Source of the DNA: an uncultured Methanoregulaceae archaeon
GTDB taxonomy: Archaea > Halobacteriota > Methanomicrobia > Methanomicrobiales > Methanospirillaceae
NCBI GenBank assembly: GCA_963717525.1
Contig: OY970343.1
Span: forward strand, 1,408,001-1,472,000
Direction of reading: 5' to 3'
Length of the DNA stretch: 64,000 nucleotides
The notes beneath the pieces are model-generated. The model ran no database searches, was not told the origin of the DNA, and worked only from the letters and a program-made list of their open reading frames with translations. The position numbers were made by a program, and so were the translations under genes. Of the stretch, positions 17,691-37,289 are shown in pieces. The stretch's first letter is position 1. Each line of letters begins with the position of its first letter.

Positions 17691-18635
17691 TTACTGCAGC
17701 CCGAATGACTTCAGGGTCACATCGTTATTGACTGCACCGACATGGTAAACGCTGCCATCAGAGAGCTCGTTGATGACAACCTCGGCCGGGGAGAAGAGCG
17801 ATGTATCGATCTTGTAGAAGTCATACCCTGCTTCCTTGAAGATGTCGTTGAAGGGCTTACCGTAGCCCTTGGACTTGCTGCTGGGGATCTTCTCGAGATA
17901 ATCCTTGATCTCCGGCGCATTCATCGTGAGCTGGATCTGGCCGTGGTAAATGGTCGCATCGTTGGTAACTCCCATCGCACGTTTGGCCCCCCTGACCGGC
18001 GGAATCGGGGCCGTTCCGATAGCTGCCGTAATCTTTCTCGTGTCAAACCCAAGCTCGTTTAATTTGTAGATCGCCGTCTCCACGCAGCGCCCCGAGACCT
18101 GGATCGAACCGACAATCGAGGAAGTCGGCGCAACCACGGCACAGGTATTTGCCACATCGATGTGGCATTCCTCGGCAATCTTCTCCATGACCTCGCCGTT
18201 TGGCAGGTGATCGGACTCGAGGCAGATCACCGCGCAGTCGTAGTCATCCTCGTAGTCAATCACTTCAAAGGTGTGCTTGGGCTTGAGGGAGAGCGCCCGG
18301 GCCGGGCCACTGCCCATCGCAAAGTAGTTCCCCACCTTGACCGTCCAGCCGGCCTTCTGGGCCCCGAGGCAGGCAATCGAAGGAAAATCGGTATTCACAT
18401 CGATGAATGGCTGGGGGAACTCCTTTATCTGCCCCATCCTGAAGTTGACCTCTCCAAGACCGCCCATACAGATCTCGGTAAATGCCCTCCCTGCCGCATA
18501 CCCTCCCCGGGTACTTACACCACAGTCGACGATGCGTGCGCCATTGTCGAGTTCATGGTATGCTGCGTTAAACTCCTCGGCCAGATCGGCGAGGTTGTCA
18601 AATATTTCAAGTGCCAGTTCGTTAACACTTAACAT
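17691..18635 (-). CDS. mch: Methenyltetrahydromethanopterin cyclohydrolase
   Basis: ACLGAQKAGW, MGSGPARAL, GSIQVSGR, YDFYKID. Confidence 0.97.
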   Translation of the reverse strand: MLSVNELALEIFDNLADLAEEFNAAYHELDNGARIVDCGVSTRGGYAAGRAFTEICMGGLGEVNFRMGQIKEFPQPFIDVNTDFPSIACLGAQKAGWTVKVGNYFAMGSGPARALSLKPKHTFEVIDYEDDYDCAVICLESDHLPNGEVMEKIAEECHIDVANTCAVVAPTSSIVGSIQVSGRCVETAIYKLNELGFDTRKITAAIGTAPIPPVRGAKRAMGVTNDATIYHGQIQLTMNAPEIKDYLEKIPSSKSKGYGKPFNDIFKEAGYDFYKIDTSLFSPAEVVINELSDGSVYHVGAVNNDVTLKSFGLQ

Positions 18636-18704
18636 AGAAAGACCCCTGTCTCATAAGAAGAGGGTTCACAAATAGATAAGATTTTTGAAAATATTCCGTC
18701 GGCC

Positions 18705-19829
18705 TTATAAAAGATATTCCAGCACCCTGGCCGGTTCGTAACGGAGCGTGATCACCCTGGTCCTGCCTTTCCCTCCCCGGTACTGGAGGTTGACCAGCCG
18801 CATCGCATCCATCTTTTTGACAATTTCATAGAAGCGGGTGTACCCGATGGGCACCTTCTCTTTGATGGTTTTGTAGACCTCGCCGGCGTTCATCTCTGCT
18901 CCCGTGGCGCTTATCGTGGCAAGTTCCCGGAGGATCCTGCTCTCTTCGTCCTTAAGCGTCTTCAGCGTATATTCGAGATGCAGGTACTTTGAGACCGCGT
19001 ATGCTCCGCAGATATCCTCGCGCCCGATGCTGCGCCGTGCGGCCCTTTCTGCGTTGAAGGCTGCCCGTTTGAGGAGATCGATACCCACCCGCAGGTCTCC
19101 GCTCTTCTGTGTCTGCTCCACGACGAGATCCAGCATCTCGTCGCTCAAAACCCCACTGAAAAAACCCTGCATCACGCGGGCCGTCATAATCTCCCTCACC
19201 TCGGCATTCCCATAGGGAGGAAAATAGATCTCGGTGGGGCGGAAGACCGAGGAGACCCGGGCATCCACCGCACGGGAGAGATCCACATCCGGGTCGCTGA
19301 TGATCACAATAACCCCGATGCGGACGCCGTCGTAGGATTCATGGGCCCGGAGCAGCGTGTACAGCACCTTGTTGAGTTCATTCTCGTAGAGAAGGTAATT
19401 GGCATCATCAAGTGCGACGAGCAATACACACTCCTCTTTCTGGAGGATGCGGGCGACCGCGTCAAAGACCTGCTTGAAGGAAGTTCCCGAAGAAGGCGGG
19501 AGATGGCCGGAGAGTTTCCGGTAGATCTGGGAGAGAATGGCAAACTTGGTATTGTCGATCTGGCAGTTGATATGGACCGGCACCAGTTTTTTTGTTGTCT
19601 CTTCGATCTCCTGAAAGAGTTTTTTGACACTGGTCGTTTTGCCGGAACCGGGCAGGCCTTTGCAGATCGTATTGAGGGGTCGTCCGCCCCGGAGCCCCGG
19701 CCGTATCTGGAACGCGAGTTCGCGCATCTGGGTGTCACGGAACTCAAACTGCTCGGGGACATAATCGATCTCGAATACATCGGGGTCGCGGAACAACGAC
19801 TCGTCCCACATCAGCAGGTTCTTTTTCAT
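18705..19829 (-). CDS. cdc6: Orc1/Cdc6 DNA replication initiator
   Basis: DYVPE..RDTQ, Walker A GLPGSGKT, LDD, FPPY, GDLR, C-terminal wHTH GKGRT. Confidence 0.95.
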   Translation of the reverse strand: MKKNLLMWDESLFRDPDVFEIDYVPEQFEFRDTQMRELAFQIRPGLRGGRPLNTICKGLPGSGKTTSVKKLFQEIEETTKKLVPVHINCQIDNTKFAILSQIYRKLSGHLPPSSGTSFKQVFDAVARILQKEECVLLVALDDANYLLYENELNKVLYTLLRAHESYDGVRIGVIVIISDPDVDLSRAVDARVSSVFRPTEIYFPPYGNAEVREIMTARVMQGFFSGVLSDEMLDLVVEQTQKSGDLRVGIDLLKRAAFNAERAARRSIGREDICGAYAVSKYLHLEYTLKTLKDEESRILRELATISATGAEMNAGEVYKTIKEKVPIGYTRFYEIVKKMDAMRLVNLQYRGGKGRTRVITLRYEPARVLEYLL

Positions 19830-20155
19830 CGTTAGTACTCCATCTACGTTGCAAATAATAACAGCTCTGGTGACCGGTACCGGAGCGGACCGCGTAAAGA
19901 TCTGACCGGGGACCCCTTATCGCTCTGGAAGGATGAAAAAAAAAGAATATTTCGGAGGATAAAACGAAGATCTTCACTCAGGGCCTGGAGAAACGGACGG
20001 ATCTTGGTTTCTCCCTCTCGCAGGATATCCCCTCGATTATCAGGCTTGTCATTATCGAGAATAAAAAGCCGGGTCGGGTTCACAGGGTGAGCGGGGAAGC
20101 CTGAAGATCTGTTAAGATCTGACACCCCACAACGGTTAGCAAGCCGTATTCCTGA

Positions 20156-20353
20156 CTATCGATCCGTATAGGGCGTCAGTACGTTCAGGCGTGTCCCGCA
20201 GTGCCGGCAGGAGACCACCCTGGCATTGCGGAAATGATCCTGCGGCATCTTGTTGACAATTGTGCTCTCAGCGGCGCATGAGGGACAGGTGAACCGGATC
20301 ACGTATCCGGCTCTGGTGCCCTTGATCTCGGGATAGGATTTCTGGGCAGGCAT
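20156..20353 (-). CDS. Small zinc-ribbon protein
   Basis: 65 aa from MPAQKS with CPSC...CRHC. Confidence 0.7.
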   Translation of the reverse strand: MPAQKSYPEIKGTRAGYVIRFTCPSCAAESTIVNKMPQDHFRNARVVSCRHCGTRLNVLTPYTDR

Positions 20354-20771
20354 TATCAGGATAATTGGTTTTGTTCTTTTGACCGGCCTCTCCTTTCTGC
20401 AGGAGATCCGGGCTGCGATCAAAAAAAGTCTTGCAGGGTACCTGGATGAGGACATTTCCCCGGCCAATTAAGGATGGCAAAACCGTTGATGAGATAGTAC
20501 TCTTGGTGCCATAGCAGATAGTAGTATGGAATTACTCCCTGAAGCACGATCGTGCAGCAAGATTCCCTATTCGAGGTGGCTCTGAGGAAAAGGGGATCTC
20601 CGTATGTCTTGCCCGTGGAACATTCCCGCGAGGATCCCCGTCAGGTAAGCCTGATGTTCCGCATTATCCCGAAAAGTACGGAGTGGGAAATTTCGCCGGA
20701 AAAATTTTCCGGAAAGGGTATACATTTTTTAACAATGCACAATTGTCATTCAATAAAAAACGGGACTTGGA

Positions 20772-21049
20772 TCAGGGGGTCCCGGTGGGTTGGAGGAGAA
20801 GACGGCCACGGGATGTCAGCCGGAGAACAATCTCGCTGCTGGATTTCCCCCCATCAAGATAACGCTTGGAAAGAAGGACGCGGACCCGGACCGGATAGTG
20901 CTCTCGCTTCGGGCAGGATACAACGTGTGCACGACATGATTTATATGGCACCCTTGTTTATCAGCAACTGCCTGGAGGATATCAATTTGGATTGGGGTGG
21001 GCACAAATAGTTCGGGAGTTTCAAAGCTGATTTTTTCCATGGTTTCCAT
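20772..21049 (-). CDS. Small winged-helix DNA-binding protein; apparent -1 frameshift near 20886
   Basis: LTP-like IQIDILQ...SESTIRSG; adding one G to the GGG run continues VRVLLSKRYLDGGKSSSEIVLRLTSRG (MarR-like wing LT.RG) to stop at 20772. Confidence 0.7.
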
Positions 21050-21306
21050 AAATTGTCCTGGTGATTTTTTTATTAAAAGCGCAGATGGTAGAGGATATTT
21101 GATCCGCCCCGGCGAATCACCATAATATTATAGGGCGTATGAGATGAAGTAACCATGCATGGCACGATCGATTTTTCCGCAGAGAACGTGAGCGCAGAGC
21201 GATGATCGGCATTGAGGAATTGCCGGAGATGGTGGAGCGCCTCATTTTCAGGAGAAACAAAATTTATCACTATGGCAATTTAACAATTAAAATTAAACCA
21301 TCTCCT

Positions 21307-21326
21307 GGCAGATGATGAAAGTTACC
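21307..21326 (+). repeat. att direct repeat, left copy (GGCAGATGATGAAAGTTACC)
   Basis: Identical to 30126-30145. Confidence 0.9.
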
Positions 21327-21996
21327 GTATAATTTTAGTTGCAGATACTATGTATTTTAAGGCTTGATTTGAGCCCGAAATATTTACGAACTTTTCCTGT
21401 ATGACGGTGGAGATACTAAAACCGGCCTTTCTTTCACTTACCGCATACTTTTACCCATCGGCAGGGACTTTTGCCAAAAGAAGTGCCTTGGTGGGGCTTT
21501 ATTGACGGATAATTGCGGTTACAAAACGGCACGATCCCCGGGGGTTGTAATTGCTCCCCCAGGGAGTGTAAAAAATGCAGTAACGGTGGCGAAGCAGGGG
21601 TTCATCGCGGGAAGGTACCGGCCCGCTCGCCCCCGGTTACTGTTTGGCTGGCTTGCCGGTGCAAGGGAGATGGTTCCGGAAGTCTATCCGGTTCCGCATG
21701 ACTAAAACAAGACTCTTATAAACTTTAAGCACTTTAAGGGGAGGTTTTTCCCGTCAGTAAAAAACGGGTACCGCGGGCTCTGGCGTTCGTTACAGAACCA
21801 AGTCGTTCCCCTCAAAACATCCCACAACTAAAGTTCGTGGGCTTTCTGCCTGCTCTGATCGTAAACAGCCTGAACAGTCTGAACAACCGTTTTCAGATGT
21901 GGGCCCATTGAGAAAATAAGACTGGAAAGCCCGAAGGTCAATTAGGAAAGTTGAATAATATAACAGTATATATGAGGTGAATTAAGATGATGCCAT

Positions 21997-23157
21997 GTGA
22001 AGAAAATCGTTTTGGTTCTTCTATTATTGATAATTGGAATCGTTCAGATCGTTGGGGCATCCCCGGCCCCTGTTGTTGCGGATTTTACTTACACAACGGT
22101 ATGTGGATACACTTTTCAATTTAGTGATACATCCACCGGCAACCCAATCACATGGTATTGGAGTTTTATGGGGGGTAGCCAAGCTTCACCCGATCAAAAT
22201 CCTTACGTTTCCATAAATCAGGGTACGCAAACTGTAAGTTTAACAGTAGGTAATGGAACCCAGTATACGTCAACAATTAGTAAAACTGTCGTATCAACAC
22301 CCCCATCAGTTCCGACTGCAAGTTTTACTACAACTCCTTCATCCGGTACAGTACCCTTAACAGTCCAGTTTACAGATACATCATCGTCTCTTAATTGTCC
22401 CATAAACCGCTGGTCATGGTCTTTCGGCGATGGCTCGGGTAGTTCGATAAATCAAAAACCAACATATACATTCACTAAAACCTGTAATCCTAATACCGGT
22501 AATAGAACATTTCCTGTAACACTAATCGTTTATACGGGTGGTGGAACCCAAGCCACGACCACAAATAACGTCATAATAACTGCCCCTCCCGATCCAGTTT
22601 CTTCTTTTACTGCAAATCAGACCAGTGGGCCAGCTCCTTTAACAGTACAATTTACAGATACATCGAAGAATAATCCAACAACATGGGGCTGGAATTTTGG
22701 TGATGGGACTGGATCAAATTTACAGAATCCCCCCACACACGCCTATACCATTTCTGGCGTATATACCGTCACAATGCAGGCTTCGAGTTCCACTACATGT
22801 AATCCAACAAATCCTGCTACCTCAACAATTACTGTTCTCTCCCCACTTGCACCCGGAACAACAACCTCCCCGACACCCTCCCTTAATCAAACCGCGACGA
22901 TCACCACCTCAACGACTCTTCCACCGACAACGGTAACCGAACAAACAACCCTTCCATCTGTAACTATGGCTCAAACTGTAACCGCCACACCCTCGGGATT
23001 TTATTATACCCCAAAACCGACCGTCACGACAATGAAGGTATTCACGTCAATTCCAACCAGTACACCGACCCAAAAGTCTCCATTTGGAATAGAGTTTAGT
23101 ATTTTGGCGATTAGTGCCGCGATTCTAATAGTAAGGAGCCAATACCGGAAGCCATGA
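21997..23157 (+). CDS. PKD-domain surface protein with Thr-rich linker and C-terminal anchor
   Basis: Signal peptide; three PKD-like repeats (VQFTDTS...W.W.FGDG); T-rich stalk; KSP-hydrophobic-basic tail. Confidence 0.88.
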   Translation: MKKIVLVLLLLIIGIVQIVGASPAPVVADFTYTTVCGYTFQFSDTSTGNPITWYWSFMGGSQASPDQNPYVSINQGTQTVSLTVGNGTQYTSTISKTVVSTPPSVPTASFTTTPSSGTVPLTVQFTDTSSSLNCPINRWSWSFGDGSGSSINQKPTYTFTKTCNPNTGNRTFPVTLIVYTGGGTQATTTNNVIITAPPDPVSSFTANQTSGPAPLTVQFTDTSKNNPTTWGWNFGDGTGSNLQNPPTHAYTISGVYTVTMQASSSTTCNPTNPATSTITVLSPLAPGTTTSPTPSLNQTATITTSTTLPPTTVTEQTTLPSVTMAQTVTATPSGFYYTPKPTVTTMKVFTSIPTSTPTQKSPFGIEFSILAISAAILIVRSQYRKP

Positions 23158-23297
23158 GGATCGGGAAATGTCGTTCTTTTCGTTTTGCGGAAAATTTGCT
23201 GCCGGGATATCGGTTACGAACATGCTGCCGTAGAGCGACATAAATCACTCACATAAAAAAGGAAATTATTATAGTATACCCAAGAGAAGTATCACTT

Positions 23298-23660
23298 ATG
23301 TTTTGCCCGAATTGTGGTGCCGAGCTTCAATATGCAGACGCGGAAATCTGCCCCAAGTGCGGAATACGGATCAAGAGCCCCCCGGCGCCTGTCGGAATGA
23401 ATAAAGGTCCCCGTGTTGAGGGCGAAGAAATTAAAAGTACAGGGATCGCCGCAATTGCTTCTTTCATCATCCCGGGCCTCGGGCAAATTTATTGTGGTGC
23501 GATTGGTCGGGGAATCATGATTTTGATTGGCTTTATCATCGCATGTTTGATGATCCTTATTGTTATAGGGATTATAATTGCCCCGATCGTATGGGTCTGG
23601 AATATTTACGATGCGTACACAATGGCAAAAAAGATCAATGCCGGGGAGATCACAATTTAA
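23298..23660 (+). CDS. Zinc-ribbon + TM2-like membrane protein
   Basis: MFCPNCG..ICPKCG; KSTGIAAIASFIIPGLGQIY; WNIYDAY. Confidence 0.85.
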   Translation: MFCPNCGAELQYADAEICPKCGIRIKSPPAPVGMNKGPRVEGEEIKSTGIAAIASFIIPGLGQIYCGAIGRGIMILIGFIIACLMILIVIGIIIAPIVWVWNIYDAYTMAKKINAGEITI

Positions 23661-23686
23661 TTTTTAGAGGACTTGCGCCGGTTGGA

Positions 23687-23941
23687 GTGAGAAAAACGGA
23701 CCTTACCAGTTTTGCCGGGAAAGTAGTTGTTGGCGTATCCATAGCGATCGTACTGGCTTTTATCGCTCTGATTGCCTTGGCGGTCTTCTGTGTGGGCCTC
23801 GGGGCCGTTTCGTCAGTAACAAACCCTCATGTAGCGCAGGACACCCAGCAAGAGGTACCAACAATTACAGGAGAATATCAGCCACGCGCAGGTCGGGATC
23901 TCCGGTGCAGTCCAGAATATTACCGGCGGTTGACATCCTAA
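23687..23941 (+). CDS. Small single-TM hypothetical protein
   Basis: GTG start; hydrophobic segment VVVGVSIAIVLAFIALIALAVFCVG; C-terminus uncertain. Confidence 0.5.
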   Translation: MRKTDLTSFAGKVVVGVSIAIVLAFIALIALAVFCVGLGAVSSVTNPHVAQDTQQEVPTITGEYQPRAGRDLRCSPEYYRRLTS

Positions 23942-24116
23942 AACCCCATTTTTCTCAGATTTTTGTGGGAACGGGTAGGCCTAAAAAGGTGAAAATTCCC
24001 GGATTTTTATCTGGCCTCCCTGGCAGTATATAAAAATCGTTTTTCGCCTGTGAATCTAGATTATACGGGCTCCGATTTGGCAAATACTCTATGATATTGG
24101 CGTTATTTTATGCCCC

Positions 24117-24713
24117 TTACGAGGTGCAGCCCCATCCTTTCACTTGTTCCTTGATGGCTTCCCGCTCTGCCTGCGTCCATGAGATGTTAAAATAATGCCG
24201 CAGCGCCGTTGTTTCTGTGTGTCCCTGTGAGAGAACGATGTTGATTACCTTATCCGGGTAGGCTGCGAGTAGCCAGCTCTCCCACGTCTTCCGGCTCGTG
24301 CGGACCGTGATCCCGGTTGGGTTGCTGCTCTCCTCATTCCCTGGTAGTGCCTGAATACGTGCCCGCTGTGCCCACCGGATAAGGTTTGATTGCCAGACAT
24401 GGGGGGAGCTCGGGACAGAGGGATTTTTCAGATATTCCTCAACTGCGAGAAGCCCTTTATCGGACAGACATACATTCCGGGATATCTGGGAGGCCTTCGC
24501 TTTGCCGCTCTTGATCGTGATGGTCTTGCGATCCTGGTCGAATATCCCGGGGTTGTTTGTCAGCTGTTGAACTTCCGCTAATCGCAGACCGGTATAGAGC
24601 ATAAGGTTAAAGAGTGCCTTGCTTGACGGTTTCTCAATGACATCCCGGATCTTGTCCGCTTCAATGGGAGTAAATACCCGGCTTGAATTGCATGTGAGAG
24701 CGCTGCTTGCCAT
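24117..24713 (-). CDS. Short tyrosine recombinase (catalytic domain only)
   Basis: YTGLRLAE (R), GKAK (K), TSRKTWESWL (R), QGHT (H), RHY (Y); 198 aa. Confidence 0.85.
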   Translation of the reverse strand: MASSALTCNSSRVFTPIEADKIRDVIEKPSSKALFNLMLYTGLRLAEVQQLTNNPGIFDQDRKTITIKSGKAKASQISRNVCLSDKGLLAVEEYLKNPSVPSSPHVWQSNLIRWAQRARIQALPGNEESSNPTGITVRTSRKTWESWLLAAYPDKVINIVLSQGHTETTALRHYFNISWTQAEREAIKEQVKGWGCTS

Positions 24714-25150
24714 AATAGATAATGGGTTTGTTAGTATTTAAAAGAGTATACTTTAAGATAGAACTATACCCAATATCTCTTCTATTTCTCTTTACTTTGG
24801 GAATAATCCAGTTTTGTAACACCGAGTAACACGAAAATGAAAAAGCGTATGCGTGAATAGTCAGGTTTCGTTTCTTGTGATCGAGTCTCGGGACCCTTGG
24901 CAGTATTACTTGTTTTAACAAAAGTATGCTTGATGTAAGAATATAATGCGCCGTTTTCATACTTCGGATAGGTACGATGATCCTGGTCATCAGTCGTTGT
25001 CAGAAGCGAGTTGTCGGAGGATTTTATGTATCTGAATGAAAAAGTTTCCGGTGATTAAAGAGGGTATTTGTTATTACCTCGATACTATCCTCGTGGTCAG
25101 GTACAGGGGGAATCACTGCATAGGGCACAGTACAGAGGGTAGGTCTTCAA

Positions 25151-25367
25151 TTTACCGTTCTTTTCTGTATTATCACCCATTACCTGTCTGTTACCCTTAC
25201 CCATTCAGAGGCTATTACCTCTATTAATACCTTTTTTTATTATTATAAGAGAGAGAAGGGAAATGCTAATGCATGGTTGCTTGCGCATGGTTGCTTGTAT
25301 ATACGGTTTTGGAAAATAGGGGTAATGGGGTATTAGCGTCGGAGAGGGGGGAAATATTAGGGGTATT
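25151..25367. other. Putative replication origin of the element (inverted iteron-like arrays)
   Basis: TTACC/ATACC copies on left, GGGGTAAT/GGGGTATT copies on right, AT-rich core and tandem GCATGGTTGCTTG between; immediately 3' of helicase-like gene. Confidence 0.5.
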
Positions 25368-25386
25368 GGGGGGGGATTGATGGCCC

Positions 25387-26554
25387 TCACTTCCTCAGCC
25401 AAAAGGTGTGTATGTCGTTTATGCCCGGGATGCTTTCCCGGGAGTATTCTAGTCTTGGTTCGTTCCCCATGAGTCCACCTTTGGGGTTTTGGAAAGTCCC
25501 TGCTTTCCCGCGAAGGGCTTTGTAGACGGCTTGTATTGTAAGCCCGGTGCTGTCTTGGATTTCCTGTGCGGTCTTATGTTTTCCATCCGCAAGACACTGC
25601 ATTACAACAGTCTCGTTCCTTAAGAAGCCCGGTGTTGTACTGTTAATCATCGGTTTGGAGTATGTCAGGAACTGGTCAATAGCGAGAAAATCGGCATCAG
25701 TGGTTGTGGTCCTGTTGCATAAGATTGCGTGCGCTTGTACCAGTGTCAAATACCGTTTAAATTCTCGAATTGGGATCTCATTGTCAATCGATTTATGGAG
25801 GGTCACGACATCAGGGGCGATCAAAGACCACGCAGCATAGATAATATCAAGGTCCGGCCCGATATCCGGGTGAGGTTCTTGGATAAAAGCGCGGATCTTC
25901 GTCATCTGTTCCGGGGTCCTGCGTACTTCAAGCGTCAAGAACCGGGACTCATCCTGCCCTTCGTCAGTCTCTTGTACCACGCTCTCGACAGCCGTGAGGA
26001 TCAGACTTATCCTGGCGGGGATATGCAGGTTTTTGGGGTCGTGGTTTACGACAGTTCCCCGGTCTACGCCGGTGAACCACGATGTAAGCATATTCCTGTA
26101 CAGCGCCGCAACGTTCTCAGAAAGAACCGTATCATCCGAAAAAACCAACATGCCTTCATGCAGATCCCCGATTTTACTGGCATGATACAGATACATATCC
26201 GAGAATGTCTTGGTTAAACGATCGGCCAGGGGAATAAATAGCAAGGACTTTTTTACACTGTCACTCTTGCCGCTCTGCGTCTGTCCGTTGACAAACAGGT
26301 GTATCCCGTCGCTGGCATTTAGAACGCGGATGTTGGCTGCCGTAAGGAGGATCCCCATGAGAATGTGTGTGTCGCCAAACCATACTTTCCCGAAGGTATC
26401 GTTACAATATTTCAAGAATCCCCCGCTCTCGTAGATCTTCCGGGCGGTTGTTATAGTCTCTGGGGACAGTTCCGGTGCCGGTGCCTGCTGATTGATAACA
26501 TCGGCCTTTTTAATGAGTGCCGCTGCTTTTTTCCCCTATATCTATATCCTTCAT
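25387..26554 (-). CDS. P-loop ATPase/putative replicative helicase with C-terminal HTH; apparent frameshift near 26528
   Basis: Walker A GQTQSGKS, Walker B-like LVFSDD, ESRF, C-terminal TAQEIQDSTGLTIQAVYKAL; ATG 26554 joins the 26415 frame after removing one A. Confidence 0.7.
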
Positions 26555-27097
26555 TGCGGCGGGTGCCGCCCCGGTACATTCACAGGAGTGTGCTCCCCTT
26601 TCACCTTCTCGACAGGAAAACCCGGCCGCACATGGCGGGCGGCCCTCCTGGAGAGTTGCGTGAGTTCCTCAACATCATCACGGTTGTTCTGCTTGTGCGG
26701 GGGCTTGCAATGCTCCCGGGAGAACTGCCATAGTTCGGCGAGGATGTCCTTTTCCTCATACCCGCACCGGCGCAAGGTGCAGGACATACATAAACAGTGT
26801 GTGGTTTCCGTTGGCCTGCCGGGACAGTTGTGTACTTCTTGCAGAATGCCGCAAGGATTGCCGCCGCTCTCTTCTCGGTCGGGATCTCCAGCTCGCTCTC
26901 TGGAAGGTTTGAATATTTTTTGATCTCCCTCTGGCGTTCCTGAGTTAAGGAAGACAGGTATTCCGTCAGGGCGTCTGGCTCGGCATTAACGACAGCGAGA
27001 TTGTGGAGGCCTCATAGAGGCTTGATTCCTGGGGCACTTTTCACGGGTGTTGCTGTAGGTTTGGGCACTGCTGACGACTTGGGGATTTCTGAAGCAT
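26551..27097 (-). CDS. PriCT-like primase C-terminal-domain protein, several frameshifts
   Basis: AGGAGG + ATG 27097; PAGQRN-HTLF...LRRCG...HCKPP...DVEEL pattern spread over frames. Confidence 0.55.
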
Positions 27098-27184
27098 TCT
27101 GACAGCCTCCTGGCTTATCAGGTCAAAGTCATCACAGCACAAGATGGATATGCCTCGGCTTGATGGATTTTTCCGCTGCCGCTG

Positions 27185-27714
27185 TCACGTAAGCGCCTCC
27201 CGGTATGCCAATTGGCGATTGAATTCCGGATCGCTGGTTGGGAGCGGGTTCCACAGGTCCCCGGTCATGATTATGAATCTCGGGGCACCGCCATAAATTT
27301 CCAGGCCCGGTACTGGGTTTGTCGGGTATTCTCTTCCTGATGCCCAGATCAAGGATATGTAGACCCGTCCCCGGATACAGACTTTTCGATGTATGCCCCC
27401 TCGCACCGTGAGACGATCCGCACTGCCAGCGGGGTTAGGTTCCCCCGTGGATCGATGCAGTGGTCAAGATCCAGAACCCGGAGCGGATAATCTGCGCCGA
27501 GCACGAACGCCGGGTGTGTTCCGATGCAGAACTCAATTGCCGTCAGAACTTCGGGTAAGGTCGCCCAGTCAATCGGATTGTCGCACCGGGCAAGCGTCCC
27601 CCGGACGGTCAGCGGGATCTTTTTCACCGATCCGTCTGGCTGGGGGGTGCACCGGAAGACGACCCACCGGCGAGCGCCCTTTAAGGGCTCCGGGATATTA
27701 TCAGAGTGGATCAT
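27185..27714 (-). CDS. Archaeo-eukaryotic primase-polymerase (prim-pol) domain; frameshifts near 27350-27365
   Basis: RWVVF, KKIP, DNPIDW, DLDHC (motif I), EKSVSGDG-LHI (motif II), LEIY..RFIIMTG. Confidence 0.8.
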
Positions 27715-27986
27715 GCCTCTTCCTCCCGCTGGAATTTGTTGATCGCGGCGGTCTCGTCCTCCATACCGGCGGTGATATCCCCGTTTTGGATACGCTCGGC
27801 GACGGTCCGGTCATCGTCAAGGAGATACAACCGCCGGATAGCGGCAAGTTGTGTGGGAGAGAGCCGGTCGAGGTCATCGTCTTCCCGTCGAAGAAGAGAG
27901 AGCATTTCGGTGCGAGTGGTCGGAATATCACCCGCGAACGGCGTGTAGGGCTTATCAGGCGTCCGTTCTTGTAACATGTCCAACAC
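27711..27986 (-). CDS. Small hypothetical protein of the element
   Basis: 91-aa ORF whose stop overlaps the primase start (ATGA). Confidence 0.6.
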   Translation of the reverse strand: MLDMLQERTPDKPYTPFAGDIPTTRTEMLSLLRREDDDLDRLSPTQLAAIRRLYLLDDDRTVAERIQNGDITAGMEDETAAINKFQREEEA

Positions 27987-28149
27987 CTACCGGGGCCTGC
28001 CGCCCATCGTCGATTATGACCACTCCTTCTTCGCGCATGAACGCAAGCGCGACGCCATCAGGAATCCCGATTGAACGGCCCCAGCTGATGACGGCCCCGC
28101 GATGGAACATCGTCATTCCGGTGCCGTGGCTCTGAACTCCGGCGGTCAT
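27955..28149 (-). CDS. Small hypothetical protein of the element
   Basis: 64-aa ORF coupled to the upstream RHH gene by ATGA overlap. Confidence 0.55.
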   Translation of the reverse strand: MTAGVQSHGTGMTMFHRGAVISWGRSIGIPDGVALAFMREEGVVIIDDGRQAPVGVGHVTRTDA

Positions 28150-28298
28150 TCTGCGTCCTCCTCGCCGGGGCTCCTGAATTTTTCAATTAAACGGGTCACA
28201 ACGTCGTCGTACGTTTCATTGAACCGCCCGAGTTCGCCAAGGCGTTGCACTGTGCTTCTCTGAAGCGCGATCGTGGTTTTTGATCGTGTGTCCTTCAT
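28146..28298 (-). CDS. 50-aa ribbon-helix-helix (CopG-like) protein, absent from ORF track
   Basis: Manual translation MKDTRSKTTIALQRSTVQRLGELGRFNETYDDVVTRLIEKFRSPGEEDAE*. Confidence 0.8.
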   Translation of the reverse strand: MKDTRSKTTIALQRSTVQRLGELGRFNETYDDVVTRLIEKFRSPGEEDAE

Positions 28299-28427
28299 AC
28301 AGACTATAATTTCTCATTCCGCTTATAGGGCGGTTAAGATATAAGATAACTTAATCAAAAAAGGTATGTTTTAAAATAACCTTTTTGTGCAGGAAGTTAT
28401 ATCATATCATAATTCAAAGATATTAGT

Positions 28428-28892
28428 ATGAAACCCGATGCCCGTAAACGCAACTATGGATGTCTGACCCCCCTCATGCGTGAACATCTACAAACGAGAA
28501 ACAAGACAGAGCCAATCGACGAGAAAGAAAGGGACAACCGCAAACAATCTGATTTTGTAATAACACGTCACGCAAAACAAGCCTTGAAAGATCTTGCGCT
28601 TGTAGCTGCTGCATATCCGGAAAAAAGAACCCAAGATATTTTTTCAATCGATGATCTAACAACTTTGGTAAGTGCAATCATCTTTAAGAATGGAAGTGAT
28701 GTCACCAATCACGGCCCGTATTACCATGTTCTGATTGACGCCATTATTGCTGCAATGAATTCATCCCCCAACGGAGAGATCACACATCTGAAATTCCATA
28801 TTGAACCCCAGTTGTACGGTTCGAAGAGCGGCAGACCACTGGATTTAACCAACACACTCACAAAACGGATTTCTGACCCTGTGAAAAAATAG
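28428..28892 (+). CDS. Hypothetical protein, candidate element regulator
   Basis: 154-aa ORF divergent from RHH/replication operon, convergent with integrase. Confidence 0.7.
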   Translation: MKPDARKRNYGCLTPLMREHLQTRNKTEPIDEKERDNRKQSDFVITRHAKQALKDLALVAAAYPEKRTQDIFSIDDLTTLVSAIIFKNGSDVTNHGPYYHVLIDAIIAAMNSSPNGEITHLKFHIEPQLYGSKSGRPLDLTNTLTKRISDPVKK

Positions 28893-28902
28893 GTTATATT
28901 TT

Positions 28903-30076
28903 TCATTTTTGTATCTGTCTTTGGGGAGTTGTACGGGCACTTTCTAATAAATCCGCCAACCTCCGGAGTTTTGCCGGGTCGGATGCAAAGCGCCGGACAT
29001 CGTCTTCTTCGTTCGCTGCCTCTTCAGTAAGAGACCTGCCGCACCTGATACAGAATTGAGCCCCGGGTACATTGACGGTTGAACAGTGGGGACATTGTAC
29101 CGGCTTCATGCTCGGACCTTTTGGCCGTCCTACACGCGCCACTCCCGCTTTCCCGAGAAGGATATCATCAACCCGATCATTGGACAGATGGGTATAGGTT
29201 GCCATCATGGGCGTTGCGATATTGCCCCATGCCTGTAATTTAATCACGCTCTCGGGGATCTCTTGTGCAACCATAGCAGTTATCCGGCTATGCCTGAGGA
29301 TGTACGGGAACACTCCTTTAAGGCCCGTTGCCTCTGCTGCGGTCATTATAATTTTGTCAAAATACTGACGGGACAGTATTTTACCCGTACCCGTGACGAA
29401 TACCCGCGCGTCCCCTTCCGGAGTCCCCGGGTGATAGTCCGCTTTCCATGCTGCCAGATATGGGGCGTACTGGATAAACCGAATGTACCGGGGTTTGCCG
29501 GTTTTCTTTGACGTATTGAAAACCGCGCCGTACTGGTCGAACTTTAACTGTTCCCATGTGGCCTCCCTTACTTCGATGGGTCTTAATGCCCCCTCATACA
29601 TGAACGCAATGAGAGCCCGGTCCCGGGGGTTCCGACAGGACCGGATCATCTGGTCTATTTTTTCCTCCGGGATCATCTGCGATGCAGTCTTTGTTGCCTT
29701 GTCTGCCGCCGGCGGTTTGATGCTGTCCAGTTTCTTAACGCTGATGGTAGTGTTGTATTTCTCATCTATGAGCCAATGGCAGAACTCTTTGAGGTAATAG
29801 ACCCTTAACCGCCGGGTGTTTTGCTTCCATAGAGGTTCCACGGCATTGATCGCTTTGATAATGTCCTGAGTCGTACATTGTTTGAAGGGGCCGGTCAAAT
29901 GAGCAAACTTTGAGAGACCCTTTGAGGTTACCAGGGCGGTGGATTCGGATATGTGCTTTGTCGCTTTCCGCTCTTCGCAGAACTCACAGATGAGATCAGC
30001 ATTCTCCCGGGCAGAGGATCCCGGCCTTTACCTGGCTATCCAGATATGAACCGGCATTGATGACCTTGTAAGGCAT
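28903..30076 (-). CDS. Tyrosine integrase with C-terminal zinc ribbon; apparent +1 frameshift near 30008
   Basis: RDRALIAFMYEGALRPIE (R), KTG (K), LRHSR (HxxR), WG, TYTH (Y); CPHC..CIRC; ATG 30076 joins frame after removing one G. Confidence 0.92.
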
Positions 30077-30125
30077 GAATGATAATTGGGAGTAAAAGAA
30101 TACATAGTTACCCCCTCCAAAATTC

Positions 30126-30145
30126 GGCAGATGATGAAAGTTACC
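30126..30145 (+). repeat. att direct repeat, right copy
   Basis: Identical to 21307-21326; 50 bp from the integrase start. Confidence 0.9.
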
Positions 30146-30182
30146 CCCACTGAAGACCGTGATGATGCAGGGGACTGATGCC
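30126..30182 (+). ncRNA. Box C/D 2'-O-methylation guide sRNA
   Basis: GGCA-g-ATGATGA(C)-aagttaccccca-CTGA(D')-agacc-GTGATGA(C')-tgcagggga-CTGA(D)-TGCC; four perfect boxes and a terminal stem. Confidence 0.9.
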
Positions 30183-30200
30183 ACCTTACTTTTAAAAAAT

Positions 30201-31352
30201 TCATTTGAACAGGAACGACAGGAATTCTGTTGCTTCCATCGTTCCGAACATCCCGGATTGTGCTTCTTTCTCGGTGAAATGCATGCACCCATCTGTGCCC
30301 TTTCCGGTCACCACAAAAGGCACCGGTTCACGGGAATGCGTCTTGATCCGGATTGGCGTCGGGTGATCCGGGAGGACGGCTACGATTCCGTCAAACTTTT
30401 CCCGTATTGCACCCACAACCCGGTCTACATTCTCGATGGCCCGCACTTTTTCCTCAACGCTCCCAAGGTGCCCTGCCTCATCCGGGGCCTCGATGTGGAC
30501 ATAGACAAAGTCCAGACGTTTGATCGCATCGAGAGCATACCGTGCCTTTGCCATGTAATCCGTATCCAGGTATCCCGTGGCGCCGGGGACTTTGATGACC
30601 TCCATCCCGGCACAGCGGGCGATGCCGTTCAGGAGATCGACAGCCGATATCATTCCCCCCGTGCGGTTATATTTTTGGGAGAACAGGGGAAATGCCGGCC
30701 GCCGCCCACCGCTCCACGGCCAGATCTGCGTCGCCGGGGGCTTGCCCACTTTTACCCGTGCCACGTTTACAGGGTGCCCGCTGAACACTTCGCGGCTCTT
30801 TTCCATGCAGGACAAAAGGAGATCCGCATCCCCGTTCCTCGGCAGGTAACCTGCGATCGGTTGTCCCACGATATCATGGGGAGGTGTCGAATCCGCTGCC
30901 GACCCCCGGGGAACGACAACGAGGTTACGGTAGCTGACCCCGGCTTTTACGACAACTTCAGGCACTTTTGGGGCGAGCGATTCAAAGAGCGCGGCACCTT
31001 CGACGCTGGAGATGTGACCTGCGGAAAAATCCGCCATGATCCCGTCCCTGACGGTCACAATATTGCACCGGTATGCAATATCGGCTGGTGCAAGGTCGAT
31101 TCCCATGCTCAGCGCCTCGAGAGGTCCCCGGCCGGTATAGTACTTCTCCGGGGCGTAACCGAGGATGGACATATTTGCGATATCGCTTCCTGCCTCGAAA
31201 CCGTCGGGGATCGTGTGCAGCATGCCGCACGCGCCTTCCCTCGCCATCCGGTCCATGTGCGGGGTCCTGGCATATTCAAGGGGAGTTTTTCCCCCCAGGT
31301 GCGGGATCGGCTCATCCGCCATGCCGTCCCCGAGAATCAGGATACATTTCAT
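30201..31352 (-). CDS. apgM: Cofactor-independent phosphoglycerate mutase (archaeal type)
   Basis: LGDGMAD, GSDIAN, GRGPLEA, APDEAGH, PDHPTP..TH. Confidence 0.95.
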   Translation of the reverse strand: MKCILILGDGMADEPIPHLGGKTPLEYARTPHMDRMAREGACGMLHTIPDGFEAGSDIANMSILGYAPEKYYTGRGPLEALSMGIDLAPADIAYRCNIVTVRDGIMADFSAGHISSVEGAALFESLAPKVPEVVVKAGVSYRNLVVVPRGSAADSTPPHDIVGQPIAGYLPRNGDADLLLSCMEKSREVFSGHPVNVARVKVGKPPATQIWPWSGGRRPAFPLFSQKYNRTGGMISAVDLLNGIARCAGMEVIKVPGATGYLDTDYMAKARYALDAIKRLDFVYVHIEAPDEAGHLGSVEEKVRAIENVDRVVGAIREKFDGIVAVLPDHPTPIRIKTHSREPVPFVVTGKGTDGCMHFTEKEAQSGMFGTMEATEFLSFLFK

Positions 31353-31373
31353 GATAGTGTGTCCCGGAAACCC

Positions 31374-32309
31374 TTACGCTCCGTCAAGCATTGCCCTGAC
31401 GGCAATCCTGACGCTTTCCCGTGAACCGACCTGAGGTTTCCAGCGCAGCGCCTTTATCTTATCAATCGCGAGCAGCATCTTTGGCACATCGCCGACCCAC
31501 CCGCGTTCGCCCCCGGTAAACCGGAATTTTGTATGGGGGAGGTGCATCTCCTCCGTGACGATCTCCGCTATGCTCTTTACATCGATCCAGTCCTCGGATC
31601 CAATATTGAATATGTTGACCCTGCCCCGGGCGTGCCCGACGGCAAAGAGCATGGCCGCCACGCACTCGTGCACTTCAAGGTAGGATTTTGTCTGTTTTCC
31701 GTCGCCAAGGATCTCAAGTTCAGCGGGGTTCGTTTCAAGTTTATGGATAAAATCGGTGATCACCCCGTGACCGCTCCGGGATCCGATGATATTGGCAAAC
31801 CGGAACATCCATGCGCTCATGCCAAACGAGTGGCAGTACGCGGAGATCAGTGCCTCACAAGCGAGTTTGCTCGCGCCGTAGACAGAAATAGGTTCAAGCG
31901 GAGTATAACTTTCAGGTGTCGGGATAACCTTCGCATCACCATAAACTGTCGAGGTCGAGGTGAACACCATCTCGGGAATGTTGCAGTGGCGCATCGCTTC
32001 CAGGACCCGGTAGGTCGCCATAATATTGTTCTGCATCGTCGGATCAGGATTTACCGCGCTTTGGCGGACATCCGGGTCTGCTGCAAGGTGAAAGAGCCGG
32101 TCTGCACCGTTTATGGCATCCTGCCACCCGTCACTGAGCAGATCTGCCTGCACGAACCGGATATCGCAAGAATCAATATGCCGGGCAATGGTCTCTTTAC
32201 GCCCGGCACAGAGTGAGTCAATTACCACAACCTCGTTACCTTGGGCAACGAGAGTATCAACCAGATGTGAACCGATAAAACCAGCACCACCTGTTACGAC
32301 ATCGAACAT
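31374..32309 (-). CDS. NAD-dependent epimerase/dehydratase (UDP-glucose 4-epimerase-like)
   Basis: TGGAGFIGSHL, YGASK. Confidence 0.93.
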   Translation of the reverse strand: MFDVVTGGAGFIGSHLVDTLVAQGNEVVVIDSLCAGRKETIARHIDSCDIRFVQADLLSDGWQDAINGADRLFHLAADPDVRQSAVNPDPTMQNNIMATYRVLEAMRHCNIPEMVFTSTSTVYGDAKVIPTPESYTPLEPISVYGASKLACEALISAYCHSFGMSAWMFRFANIIGSRSGHGVITDFIHKLETNPAELEILGDGKQTKSYLEVHECVAAMLFAVGHARGRVNIFNIGSEDWIDVKSIAEIVTEEMHLPHTKFRFTGGERGWVGDVPKMLLAIDKIKALRWKPQVGSRESVRIAVRAMLDGA

Positions 32310-37217: not shown

Positions 37218-37289
37218 GGGCTCGTGGTCTAGCGGTATGACGTCGCCCTTACACGGCGAAGGTCGCCGGTTCGAATCCGGCCGGGCCCA
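37218..37289 (+). tRNA. tRNA-Val (anticodon TAC)
   Basis: GGGCTCG acceptor/CGGGCCC-A; anticodon arm TCGCC-CTTACAC-GGCGA; GTTCGAATC T-loop; no encoded CCA. Confidence 0.97.

Follow-up and report, generated by a model that had tools for sequence, protein, structure and literature searches.

An 8.8-kb integrative element at the 5' end of a predicted box C/D guide-sRNA gene in an uncultured Methanoregulaceae archaeon

The element and its host flanks

The window, i.e. the whole stretch of DNA that was analysed, spans 64,000 nt of contig OY970343.1 (1,408,001-1,472,000, forward strand; assembly GCA_963717525.1) from the 2.29-Mb genome of an uncultured Methanoregulaceae archaeon (GTDB: Halobacteriota; Methanomicrobia; Methanomicrobiales; Methanospirillaceae). 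It contains an 8,819-bp integrative element that carries an integrase, a primase-helicase module, a second recombinase and cargo. The element is bracketed by GGCAGATGATGAAAGTTACC, found 100% identical at 21307-21326 and 30126-30145 (spacing 8819), which is the sole exact direct repeat of at least 16 nt in the window. The left copy (attL core, + strand) departs from sRNA sequence after 20 nt and corresponds to the displaced 5' end of the sRNA gene, namely the stem, the C box and 8 of the 12 nt of the D' guide. The right copy runs on as a full box C/D sRNA gene (30126-30182, + strand), here termed attR.

On the left the element is flanked by the host gene cdc6/orc1 (18705-19829, - strand), which at empty sites lies next to the sRNA in divergent orientation, and by a host-side spacer of 1477 bp (19830-21306). 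On the right an apgM-type phosphoglycerate mutase gene (30201-31352, - strand) is convergent with the sRNA. GC content is low in part of the element, at 0.43-0.50 over approximately 21000-26000 compared with 0.52-0.59 in the flanks. The att sites overlap no tRNA or tmRNA gene, the nearest and only tRNA gene of the window being located 7 kb away at 37218.

Cargo, identified from the ORF list and a domain search, consists of a secreted PKD-domain protein of 386 aa (21997-23157, + strand) that has a 72% paralogue elsewhere in the genome and a zinc-ribbon membrane protein of 120 aa (23298-23660, + strand). A short tyrosine recombinase of 198 aa (24117-24713, - strand) has a Phage_integrase domain and comprises the catalytic domain only. 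A P-loop ATPase with the Walker A motif GQTQSGKS (25387-26565, - strand) has homologues in the elements of genomes G044 and G170 and, as nearest Atlas clusters, viral and archaeal plasmid P-loop proteins (0.95-0.96); judged by these likenesses it is a probable replicative helicase. The adjoining primase-polymerase region (26551-27714, - strand) appears in several reading-frame pieces, of which the N-terminal one matches PHROG DNA primase families (E 1.7e-14), while a Pfam search returned no match for the ATPase or the primase pieces. Three small ORFs of 91, 64 and 50 aa, the last a DUF7557 protein (27711-28298, - strand), are partly common to related elements, and an ORF of 154 aa (28428-28892, + strand) was assigned to no family by domain search. 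Pfam and PHROG scans of the ORFs, among which small ones without assignment remain, found no capsid or packaging genes.

The other of the two Phage_integrase-domain ORFs in the block is the main tyrosine integrase (28903-30076, - strand; PF00589), which ends in a C-terminal zinc ribbon. Its start lies at 30076 and not at 29898, as the window has one extra base near 30009 that is not in three of the sequencing runs. The resulting frameshift is probably an assembly error. A pseudogene was considered and rejected on account of the same three runs and of an intact close homologue (L106). The start codon at 30076 lies 49 nt from attR and the gene is divergent from the sRNA.

Filled and empty alleles of the site

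Contigs of the public sequencing runs X1, X2, X7 and X9 were compared with the window; in RNA runs just 5-7% of words were present. In a contig of X9 (8778 nt) position 21306 is followed directly by 30126, with 8819 nt skipped and identical flanks, so that it represents the empty allele, including the host-side spacer. At the joint 20 letters fit either side and there are no extra letters. In X7 the sRNA sequence directly follows 21326, and X1 contigs span both junctions, the attL junction being covered by a contig corresponding to 20663-21491. Filled and empty alleles with identical flanks therefore exist, and the earlier claim that the repeat brackets an integrase-bearing block of roughly 8.8 kb is borne out by the repeat search together with the X1 and X9 contigs. 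The window's assembly does have indel errors, which could suggest that assembly produced the repeat artificially or that homologous recombination duplicated it by chance. Given the X1 junction contigs, the exact empty allele in X9 and unrelated inserts of 3-17 kb that in other genomes are bounded by the same core on both sides, we consider this explanation already refuted.

The circular joint (30145 to 21327) was not among the 15 joints listed out of 24, in contigs that drop rare forms. One metagenome locus (L119) has the order integrase, P arm, core, P' arm and may be a tandem junction rather than a free attP. Viral contigs yielded no integrase relative and no attL/attP pattern; three core-like matches in them were dismissed as chance, being without sRNA body, arm or integrase. 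Contig depth over the element was lower than over the flanks in X2, X7 and X9; this would suit mixed populations but is not taken as evidence, since contig depth does not give the proportion of cells.

The state of the site was surveyed in 87 genomes of the genus, which as kin are not independent of one another. The site was empty (cdc6, sRNA, apgM) in 44, integrase-adjacent in 12, had a longer spacer in 19 and could not be assigned in 12. Most of the longer-spacer genomes retain no attL and are consequently not attributable to this integrase. The empty site that the sequence-only reading had called for is thus present both in X9 and in half of the genus genomes. Three filled genomes could be paired with empty relatives by their left flanks, G021 with G121 (92%), G103 with G108 (91%) and G107 with G003 (86%), against a median of 51-56% for empties, and in the same pairs 94-96 of 100 downstream positions matched. 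Core-like matches 5-7 kb left of the site in four genomes (G004, G082, G086 and G090) look like the beginning of a protein-coding gene and were discarded. Decayed integrase stubs were found at attR in G022, G069 and G053.

The core sits over box C and forms a 7-6-7 dyad, GGCAGAT-GATGAA-AGTTACC. In 18 comparisons of attL with attR, positions 8-13 never differed and positions 1, 5, 7, 14 and 20 did, the limits at 7 and 14 each being set by a single irregular genome (an inversion in G065, two contigs in G069). Base 13 varies between hosts (A, T or C) and was always equal in both core copies. The core is accompanied by two arms. The P arm (30099-30124, + strand) contains AATACATAGTTAC and lies between the integrase start and the sRNA, and the P' arm (21331-21356, + strand) is an inverted repeat of it with 73% complementarity. 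In the inserts of all relatives attL is followed by a related arm. The core is rare in the host: besides the two exact copies of the 20-mer, the genome contains no further one within 3 mismatches and four at 4 mismatches.

A guide-RNA gene as target of one integrase clade

The right copy had been read as the opening of a complete C/D sRNA. The layout agrees, with the C box at 30131-30137, a 12-nt D' guide at 30138-30149, the D' box at 30150-30153, the C' box at 30159-30165, a 9-nt D guide at 30166-30174, the D box at 30175-30178 and the closing stem at 30179-30182. Four boxes in order, a terminal stem and a length of about 55-60 nt are what is expected of archaeal C/D sRNAs. At gathering level Rfam reported only tRNA-Val in the window and nothing at 30126-30182, and at E-value level the top matches to 30126-30182 were archaeal C/D families, led by snoPyro_CD (34.3 bits, E 7e-6; gathering 45). 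Boxes and guide are kept among relatives and linkers vary; the D' guide AAGTTACCCCCA is present in 83 of 84 sRNA bodies. Across the phylum the combination of C box, guide and D' box was found in 77 of 301 genomes, with a reversed control giving 0.

The D' guide can form 10 bp with helix 69 of 23S rRNA, in which the G at the -5 position is in a Watson-Crick pair, making G1909 (E. coli numbering) the predicted target. Another 10-bp match of this guide lies within 23S at genome position 2247584. For the D guide no convincing target was obtained, the rRNA operon and tRNAs giving only 7-9-bp matches with G-U pairs. According to PMC2584109, modification at Gm1950 (1909) has been measured and a C/D guide for it predicted, with homologues in 25 archaeal genomes. 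That haloarchaeal guide, for 23S Gm1950/1934 and with Pyrococcus sR41 suggested as counterpart, has the same predicted helix 69 position. The Rfam sR41 model scores only 9.2 bits here, and the likeness is one of predicted target position. On sequence grounds the gene most likely guides 2'-O-methylation of G1909, a role that would keep its sequence stable and make it a good landing site.

A different reading is that integration is aimed at a conserved DNA motif next to cdc6, for instance an origin-related or regulatory one, and not at an expressed guide-RNA gene. The site is within 500 bp of cdc6 in 44 genomes, and the evidence for a guide RNA is drawn from sequence, with Rfam scores below gathering. 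We regard this reading as improbable in view of the ordered boxes and stem, the preservation of boxes and guide against varying linkers, the recurrence of the motif across the phylum with an empty reversed control, the fit of the guide to a known methylated site and the C/D identity of the best Rfam matches.

The integrase is tied to the guide gene throughout. R165, K191, Y258xxR261, W283 and Y294 (G067 numbering) are invariant in 7 of 7 aligned rows, and integrated elements have full-length integrase ORFs of 380-390 aa that start 49 nt from the core. Measured from box C the start is at 54-56 nt in every element with upstream DNA, over 60-100% identity. The integrase stands beside the core in 9 of the 10 top genus matches and in 16 of 20 metagenome loci, several of which are near-copies, and the remaining one and four are without upstream DNA. 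No tRNA is located upstream of any clade member. Complete elements with both cores are also present in another genus (G170, 13 kb) and another family (G145, about 17 kb). In a midpoint-rooted tree of 55 rows (18 at the sRNA, 28 at tRNAs, 9 without target) the 18 sRNA rows form one side of one branch (support 100/99), reaching into another family. One integrase clade is always found at the sRNA gene. Homologues at 34-41% identity, from the same order, sit at tRNA genes, and the rows nearest to the clade are long branches without known target; descent of the clade from a tRNA-targeting ancestor could be no more than conjectured from a tree rooted in this way. In the comparison that the sequence-only reading had asked for, close homologues all adjoin the sRNA and most of the distant ones tRNAs.

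Alternatively the short recombinase or host XerA might perform the insertion, with the large integrase riding along. A Xer-like core dyad with a 6-bp spacer, a XerC-like protein as the profile's best solved relative, and integrase-less cassettes in five genomes (G021, G009, G095, G103 and G065) in which no clade member was found would all suit this. The constant distance of the large integrase from box C and its one-to-one relation to the target speak against it, as does the short enzyme, for which a close homologue was found in only one other element (72%, in G107). The five cassette genomes have a completeness of 74-94%, and a helper could have departed from them. We judge such a division of labour very improbable.

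Insertion by the large integrase is therefore retained as the preferred reading. We propose that the enzyme, a tyrosine integrase of the classical, non-suicidal kind, recognises a pair of 7-bp half sites separated by a 6-bp overlap, GATGAA, which would consist of the five final bases of box C and one further base, and that the inverted arms in attP may assist it. Since the crossover falls in the first 20 nt, the host promoter would be left with a 20-nt stub and the gene rebuilt at attR from 5' bases supplied by the element. The promoter of the rebuilt gene is most likely also element-supplied, overlapping the P arm and facing away from the integrase; a sigma-70 promoter scan gave chance-level output, the model being unsuited to archaeal promoters. 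We put at roughly 0.87 the probability that the element entered a conserved box C/D guide-sRNA gene at its 5' end by site-specific recombination of this kind. The claim that the integrase uses this gene as attB is supported, and neither the empty site, the copy number of the 20-mer nor the position of the homologues went against it.

Cargo cassettes, known systems and meaning

Seven cassettes without integrase were found in six genomes, with the same core at both ends and some in tandem; in G107 a cassette and an integrase element are in tandem. A rebuilt gene can be hit again, so that elements pile up. The sequence-only reading had noted neither the arms, the tandem accretion nor the cassettes. 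The cassettes retain att sites and no recombinase gene was found among the main ORFs scanned, as in CIMEs. Cargo differs completely between units and includes genes for nitrogen uptake, potassium transport and oxidative stress. Cassette left ends are 80-87% like those of integrase elements, and right ends are a separate common type, 84% AT and with no likeness to the P arm. The right ends are 63% identical in register, as compared to 36% for composition-matched shuffles, 29% for native promoters and 39% for best-shifted tRNA upstream regions. The last 48 nt of the host-side spacer are 49% like cassette right ends and 28% like native promoters, and the spacer is therefore possibly the scar of an older insert.

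The cassettes, given their core, related P' arm and common AT-rich promoter-like right end, would most simply have been left after arrival within an integrase-bearing composite (cis-mobilisation). They could instead be independent, immobile decay products of integrase elements whose right ends converged on a strong AT-rich archaeal promoter. The integrase stubs at attR, the AT content of the right ends and the definition of CIMEs as such decay products (PMC7563491) point that way. Likeness in exact register well above shuffles and shifted tRNA upstream regions, right ends unlike the P arm and wholly different cargo argue against it, as do the near-identical empty relatives of G021, G103 and G107, on account of which these gains are recent. 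We consider decay possible but rather unlikely.

Archaeal integrases were said in the sequence-only reading usually to duplicate the 3' end of their target. This is right as a rule, and use of the 5' end has a precedent at tRNA genes in pTN3-like integrases (PMC8371274). The classical type II pNOB8-consensus integrases of the same paper share with the present one an intact gene next to att, the R...YxxR...Y consensus, a short direct repeat and a restored target. Classical tRNA-targeting integrases differ from it: here the target is a C/D guide gene, the duplicated part is its 5' end, and transcription of the intact copy leads away from element and integrase. The pTN3-like integrases of Thermococcales resemble it in that attB lies within the 5' portion of an RNA gene and, most likely in the present case, the rebuilt gene is expressed from an element promoter. 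They are suicidal, with att inside the ORF, and use tRNA genes. The present att belongs to a C/D sRNA gene and is 49 nt away from the integrase ORF, which, unlike in the SSV/pTN3/pT26-2 group, is not split on integration. SNJ2-type haloarchaeal integrases (PMC5861418) likewise have a short core, conserved P/P' arms and subgroups coupled to one att sequence, but target tRNA 3' ends (with three intergenic exceptions) and have accessory Orf2/Orf3, while no conserved accessory genes follow the integrase here. Streptococcal ICE/IME families (PMC7563491) show tandem accretion as well, in which CIMEs, cargo units flanked by two att sites and lacking an integrase, are stacked with an autonomous element at a single target. 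The present system differs in being archaeal, in that no conjugation module was found and in that the cassettes share a promoter-like right end that would serve the target gene. A literature search returned no paper naming a C/D gene as attB.

Landing sites of this kind are normally tRNA genes. As annotation of C/D genes is rare and island finders examine tRNA and tmRNA genes, such sites would be filed as intergenic. In thaumarchaea, 15 of 68 sites were filed as intergenic (PMC6563490). Tentatively, and with less than even confidence, we suggest that archaeal integrases make general use of C/D guide genes as landing sites and that this class has been overlooked. In Methanomicrobiales the helix 69 guide may anchor a system of non-autonomous cargo cassettes, each with one dedicated end made of the core and P' arm and another in the form of a portable promoter by which the guide gene stays active; a visiting integrase would load, stack and exchange them. 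Each insertion would then pass control of methylation at a ribosomal subunit bridge to an element promoter. Because the 5' end of the gene and probably its promoter come from the element, a direct test of whether a mobile element changes rRNA modification is possible. The 20-bp site and its integrase are a candidate neutral integration tool for Methanomicrobiales, and a single-copy gene conserved across a methanogen order is a hot spot for the gain of metabolic cargo.

Attachment site and empty allele

The window holds an exact 20-mer pair at 21307-21326 and 30126-30145, the sole exact repeat of at least 16 nt within it, and as the sequence-only reading had proposed, the right copy opens a complete box C/D sRNA gene, a 57-nt sequence (30126-30182) that carries all four boxes (C, D', C', D) and is closed by a terminal stem. 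At gathering level no Rfam family was assigned to this sRNA; at E-value level its best five matches were all to archaeal C/D families. A strict box pattern matched the whole genome twice, at the sRNA and within a tRNA-Trp intron (G000:C1:1352876-1353045, minus strand), where box C/D sequence is known in archaea. The presumed rarity of the 20-mer was borne out, as the genome has just two copies and no third within 3 mismatches.

Contigs from four public DNA runs (X1, X2, X7 and X9) were compared over window 18500-32000. The predicted contiguous empty site was found in an X9 contig of 8778 nt that joins 20418-21306 to 30126; 8819 bases are left out, and the 20 letters at the joint fit both sides, with zero extra letters. 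X7 provided a contig with sRNA sequence immediately 3' of 21326, and contigs of X1, possibly the run from which the window itself derives, span both junctions (20663-21491 and 28332-31697). The circular joint, 30145 back to 21327, was absent from the 15 joints listed of 24 in the run contigs. At 30009, X1, X2 and X7 have one base fewer than the window (X9 does not cover this position), and the break in the main integrase gene (28903..30076, minus strand) is therefore probably an assembly error. Single-base indels at 20884, 23854 and 30009 relative to every run covering these positions suggest indel errors in this assembly that may have split other genes. Numerous internal joints and loose ends between 21444 and 27600, seen in each of the four runs, suggest that the same samples contain related elements with exchanged modules.

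Distribution of the site and of its integrases

By pattern search the core is present in 81 of 108 genomes of the genus, and the site was surveyed in the DNA of these 81 plus six others whose core is variant or truncated. In 44 of the 87 the site is empty, an intact sRNA lying within 500 bp of cdc6. The integrase or its stub adjoins the sRNA in 12, the window's own genome counted; 19 have a longer spacer without this integrase, cdc6 is absent from the retrieved DNA of nine, and three showed an attL-type copy alone, one of which (G104) could be resolved. G053 carries an integrase stub of 27 codons. For three of the filled genomes (G021, G103 and G107) there are near-relatives with an empty site whose flanks match on both sides. 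Core-to-core inserts measure 3.0-13.0 kb, reaching ~17 kb in G145. Across the phylum, the combination of C box, guide and D' box is present in 77 of 301 sampled genomes, with none for the reversed control.

Two loci from separate metagenomes, L120 and L112, have near-identical flanks around unlike inserts of 7.5 and 10.4 kb; the 7.5-kb insert also makes up an entire contig titled as bacterial (L099), which is probably misbinned. In G065 an intact sRNA and an attL-type copy lie 22 kb apart in opposite orientation (G065:C1:296746 and 319164), with a probable IS transposase adjoining the sRNA; this locus is a rearranged insert.

Adjacency to this C/D sRNA varied with the relatedness of the integrase homologues. 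Matches within the genus (72-100% identity) start 54 nt from box C at nine of 10 loci, the tenth having no upstream DNA, while the next 20 loci (34-41% identity) have a tRNA call nearby in 19 cases, one of them ~580 nt away, and none in the last. Sixteen of 20 metagenomic integrase loci extend to the site and all 16 contain the core, followed by the sRNA in 15 and by a P' arm in one (L119). A search across 401 genomes from the order added G170 from another genus and G145 from another family. Among 55 distinct tree rows, a branch with support 100/99 separates the 18 sRNA-adjacent integrases from all others, of which 28 are tRNA-adjacent and nine have no target found; four of those nine, on long branches, are nearest the sRNA clade. 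Being rooted at its midpoint, the tree gives no direction for the target switch. The catalytic pattern, R...YxxR...Y, is the pNOB8-type consensus as quoted in PMC8371274. The window's own genome encodes three distant homologues: G000:C1:56351-57391 at tRNA-Thr, 311720-312673 (with two stops) at tRNA-Asp and 1319539-1320567, for which no target was found.

Probable recombination core, cassettes and cargo

The core can be read as 7-6-7 with imperfectly inverted halves. Left and right copies were compared in 18 cases: positions 8-13 were always identical, positions 1, 5, 7, 14 and 20 differed in 5, 3, 1, 1 and 1 cases, and identity collapsed from position 21 on. Base 13 is A, T or C between hosts, always matching within a host. 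These few cases fit a strand exchange that would span the end of box C. Of four elements checked, three have inverted arms (in the window P, 30099-30124; P', 21331-21356) lying 10-17 nt beyond the core; the match in G107 is poor. Duplication of the 5' end leaves the native promoter attached to the stub and places the intact gene behind element DNA, where an AT-rich box of the P arm, ~20-27 nt upstream, would likely serve as promoter of the rebuilt sRNA. For use of the 5' half together with a promoter from the element, the archaeal example given in a review (PMC8371274) is the pTN3-like integrases.

Cassettes of 3.0-7.0 kb between cores were found in G021, G009, G095, G103 (two), G107 and G104, and the ORFs scanned in them included no recombinase. 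They carry, among others, genes for glutamine synthetase together with ammonium transporter and PII, for Kdp, for ferritin with peroxidase, and for esterases and flavodoxins. Cassette left ends are 80-87% identical to those of integrase elements over 30 nt (five tested), and a distinct AT-rich 48-nt sequence is common to all seven right ends (63% in register versus 36% for shuffles, 29% for native promoters and 39% for tRNA upstream regions). The clade integrase was not found in five cassette genomes (74-94% complete). In G107 a cassette is followed in tandem by an integrase element, the order predicted by accretion and cis-mobilisation (PMC7563491). A 1477-bp spacer left of the window element, also present in the empty allele, ends more like cassettes than like native promoters. 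Locus L082 (G122:C20:1-19900), on a contig separate from the cdc6 locus, combines a full core with a half core, a P' arm coming after each of the two, and a distant integrase lies 8 kb off. Ends of cassettes may travel within other elements.

Integrase-bearing elements differ in content between hosts: those of the window, G107 and L120 are primase-helicase replicons, that of G170 has a terminase-like domain (weak match) and that of G145 (~17 kb, L153:4196 to L154:1366, same sRNA) has a HerA/TrwB-like ATPase (weak match), large membrane proteins and a short second recombinase. The latter may be the provirus of an archaeal virus with an envelope. In the window, a PKD gene (21988-23143) is matched at 72% by a paralogue (genome 401485-402667), and the 116-bp stretch 23818-23933 recurs at genome 1267786 directly past tRNA-Phe, perhaps in another element.

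The guide and the novelty of the target

The D' guide has the same sequence in 83 of 84 sRNA bodies and forms 10 bp with the helix-69 stem of the genome's own 23S rRNA. The base opposite its -5 position is a G at genome 2247907, which, counting back from the conserved loop, we take to be G1909 in E. coli numbering. Another 10-bp match lies at genome 2247584, and no clear target was found for the D guide. For Haloarcula, Gm at 1950 (1909) has been reported together with a C/D candidate whose homologues span 25 archaeal genomes (PMC2584109), a set that may include this very sRNA gene.

In bacterial elements some other non-tRNA RNA genes serve as targets. Literature searches, which covered listings with subscription papers mostly outside their scope, returned no paper in which attB is a C/D gene, in general or for Methanomicrobiales elements. 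A review gives tRNA genes, protein genes and intergenic sites as target classes, its available text containing neither 'sRNA' nor 'snoRNA' (PMC8371274). Intergenic sites are reported with no RNA named in the portions available of PMC6563490 and PMC5861418, ncRNAs make up 13.5% of provirus RNA targets in PMC13626063, whose accessible part leaves C/D RNAs unnamed, and the available text of PMC12884075 and PMC5137440 held nothing further on a C/D gene as target.

The empty allele, the site survey and the integrase clade at the sRNA uphold the proposal that this integrase uses a C/D sRNA gene as attB, and we put the probability that observation and reading both hold at roughly 0.87. The window element lies outside the tRNA-island family and outside the suicidal integrase family, and functions like a classical tRNA-targeting integrative element.
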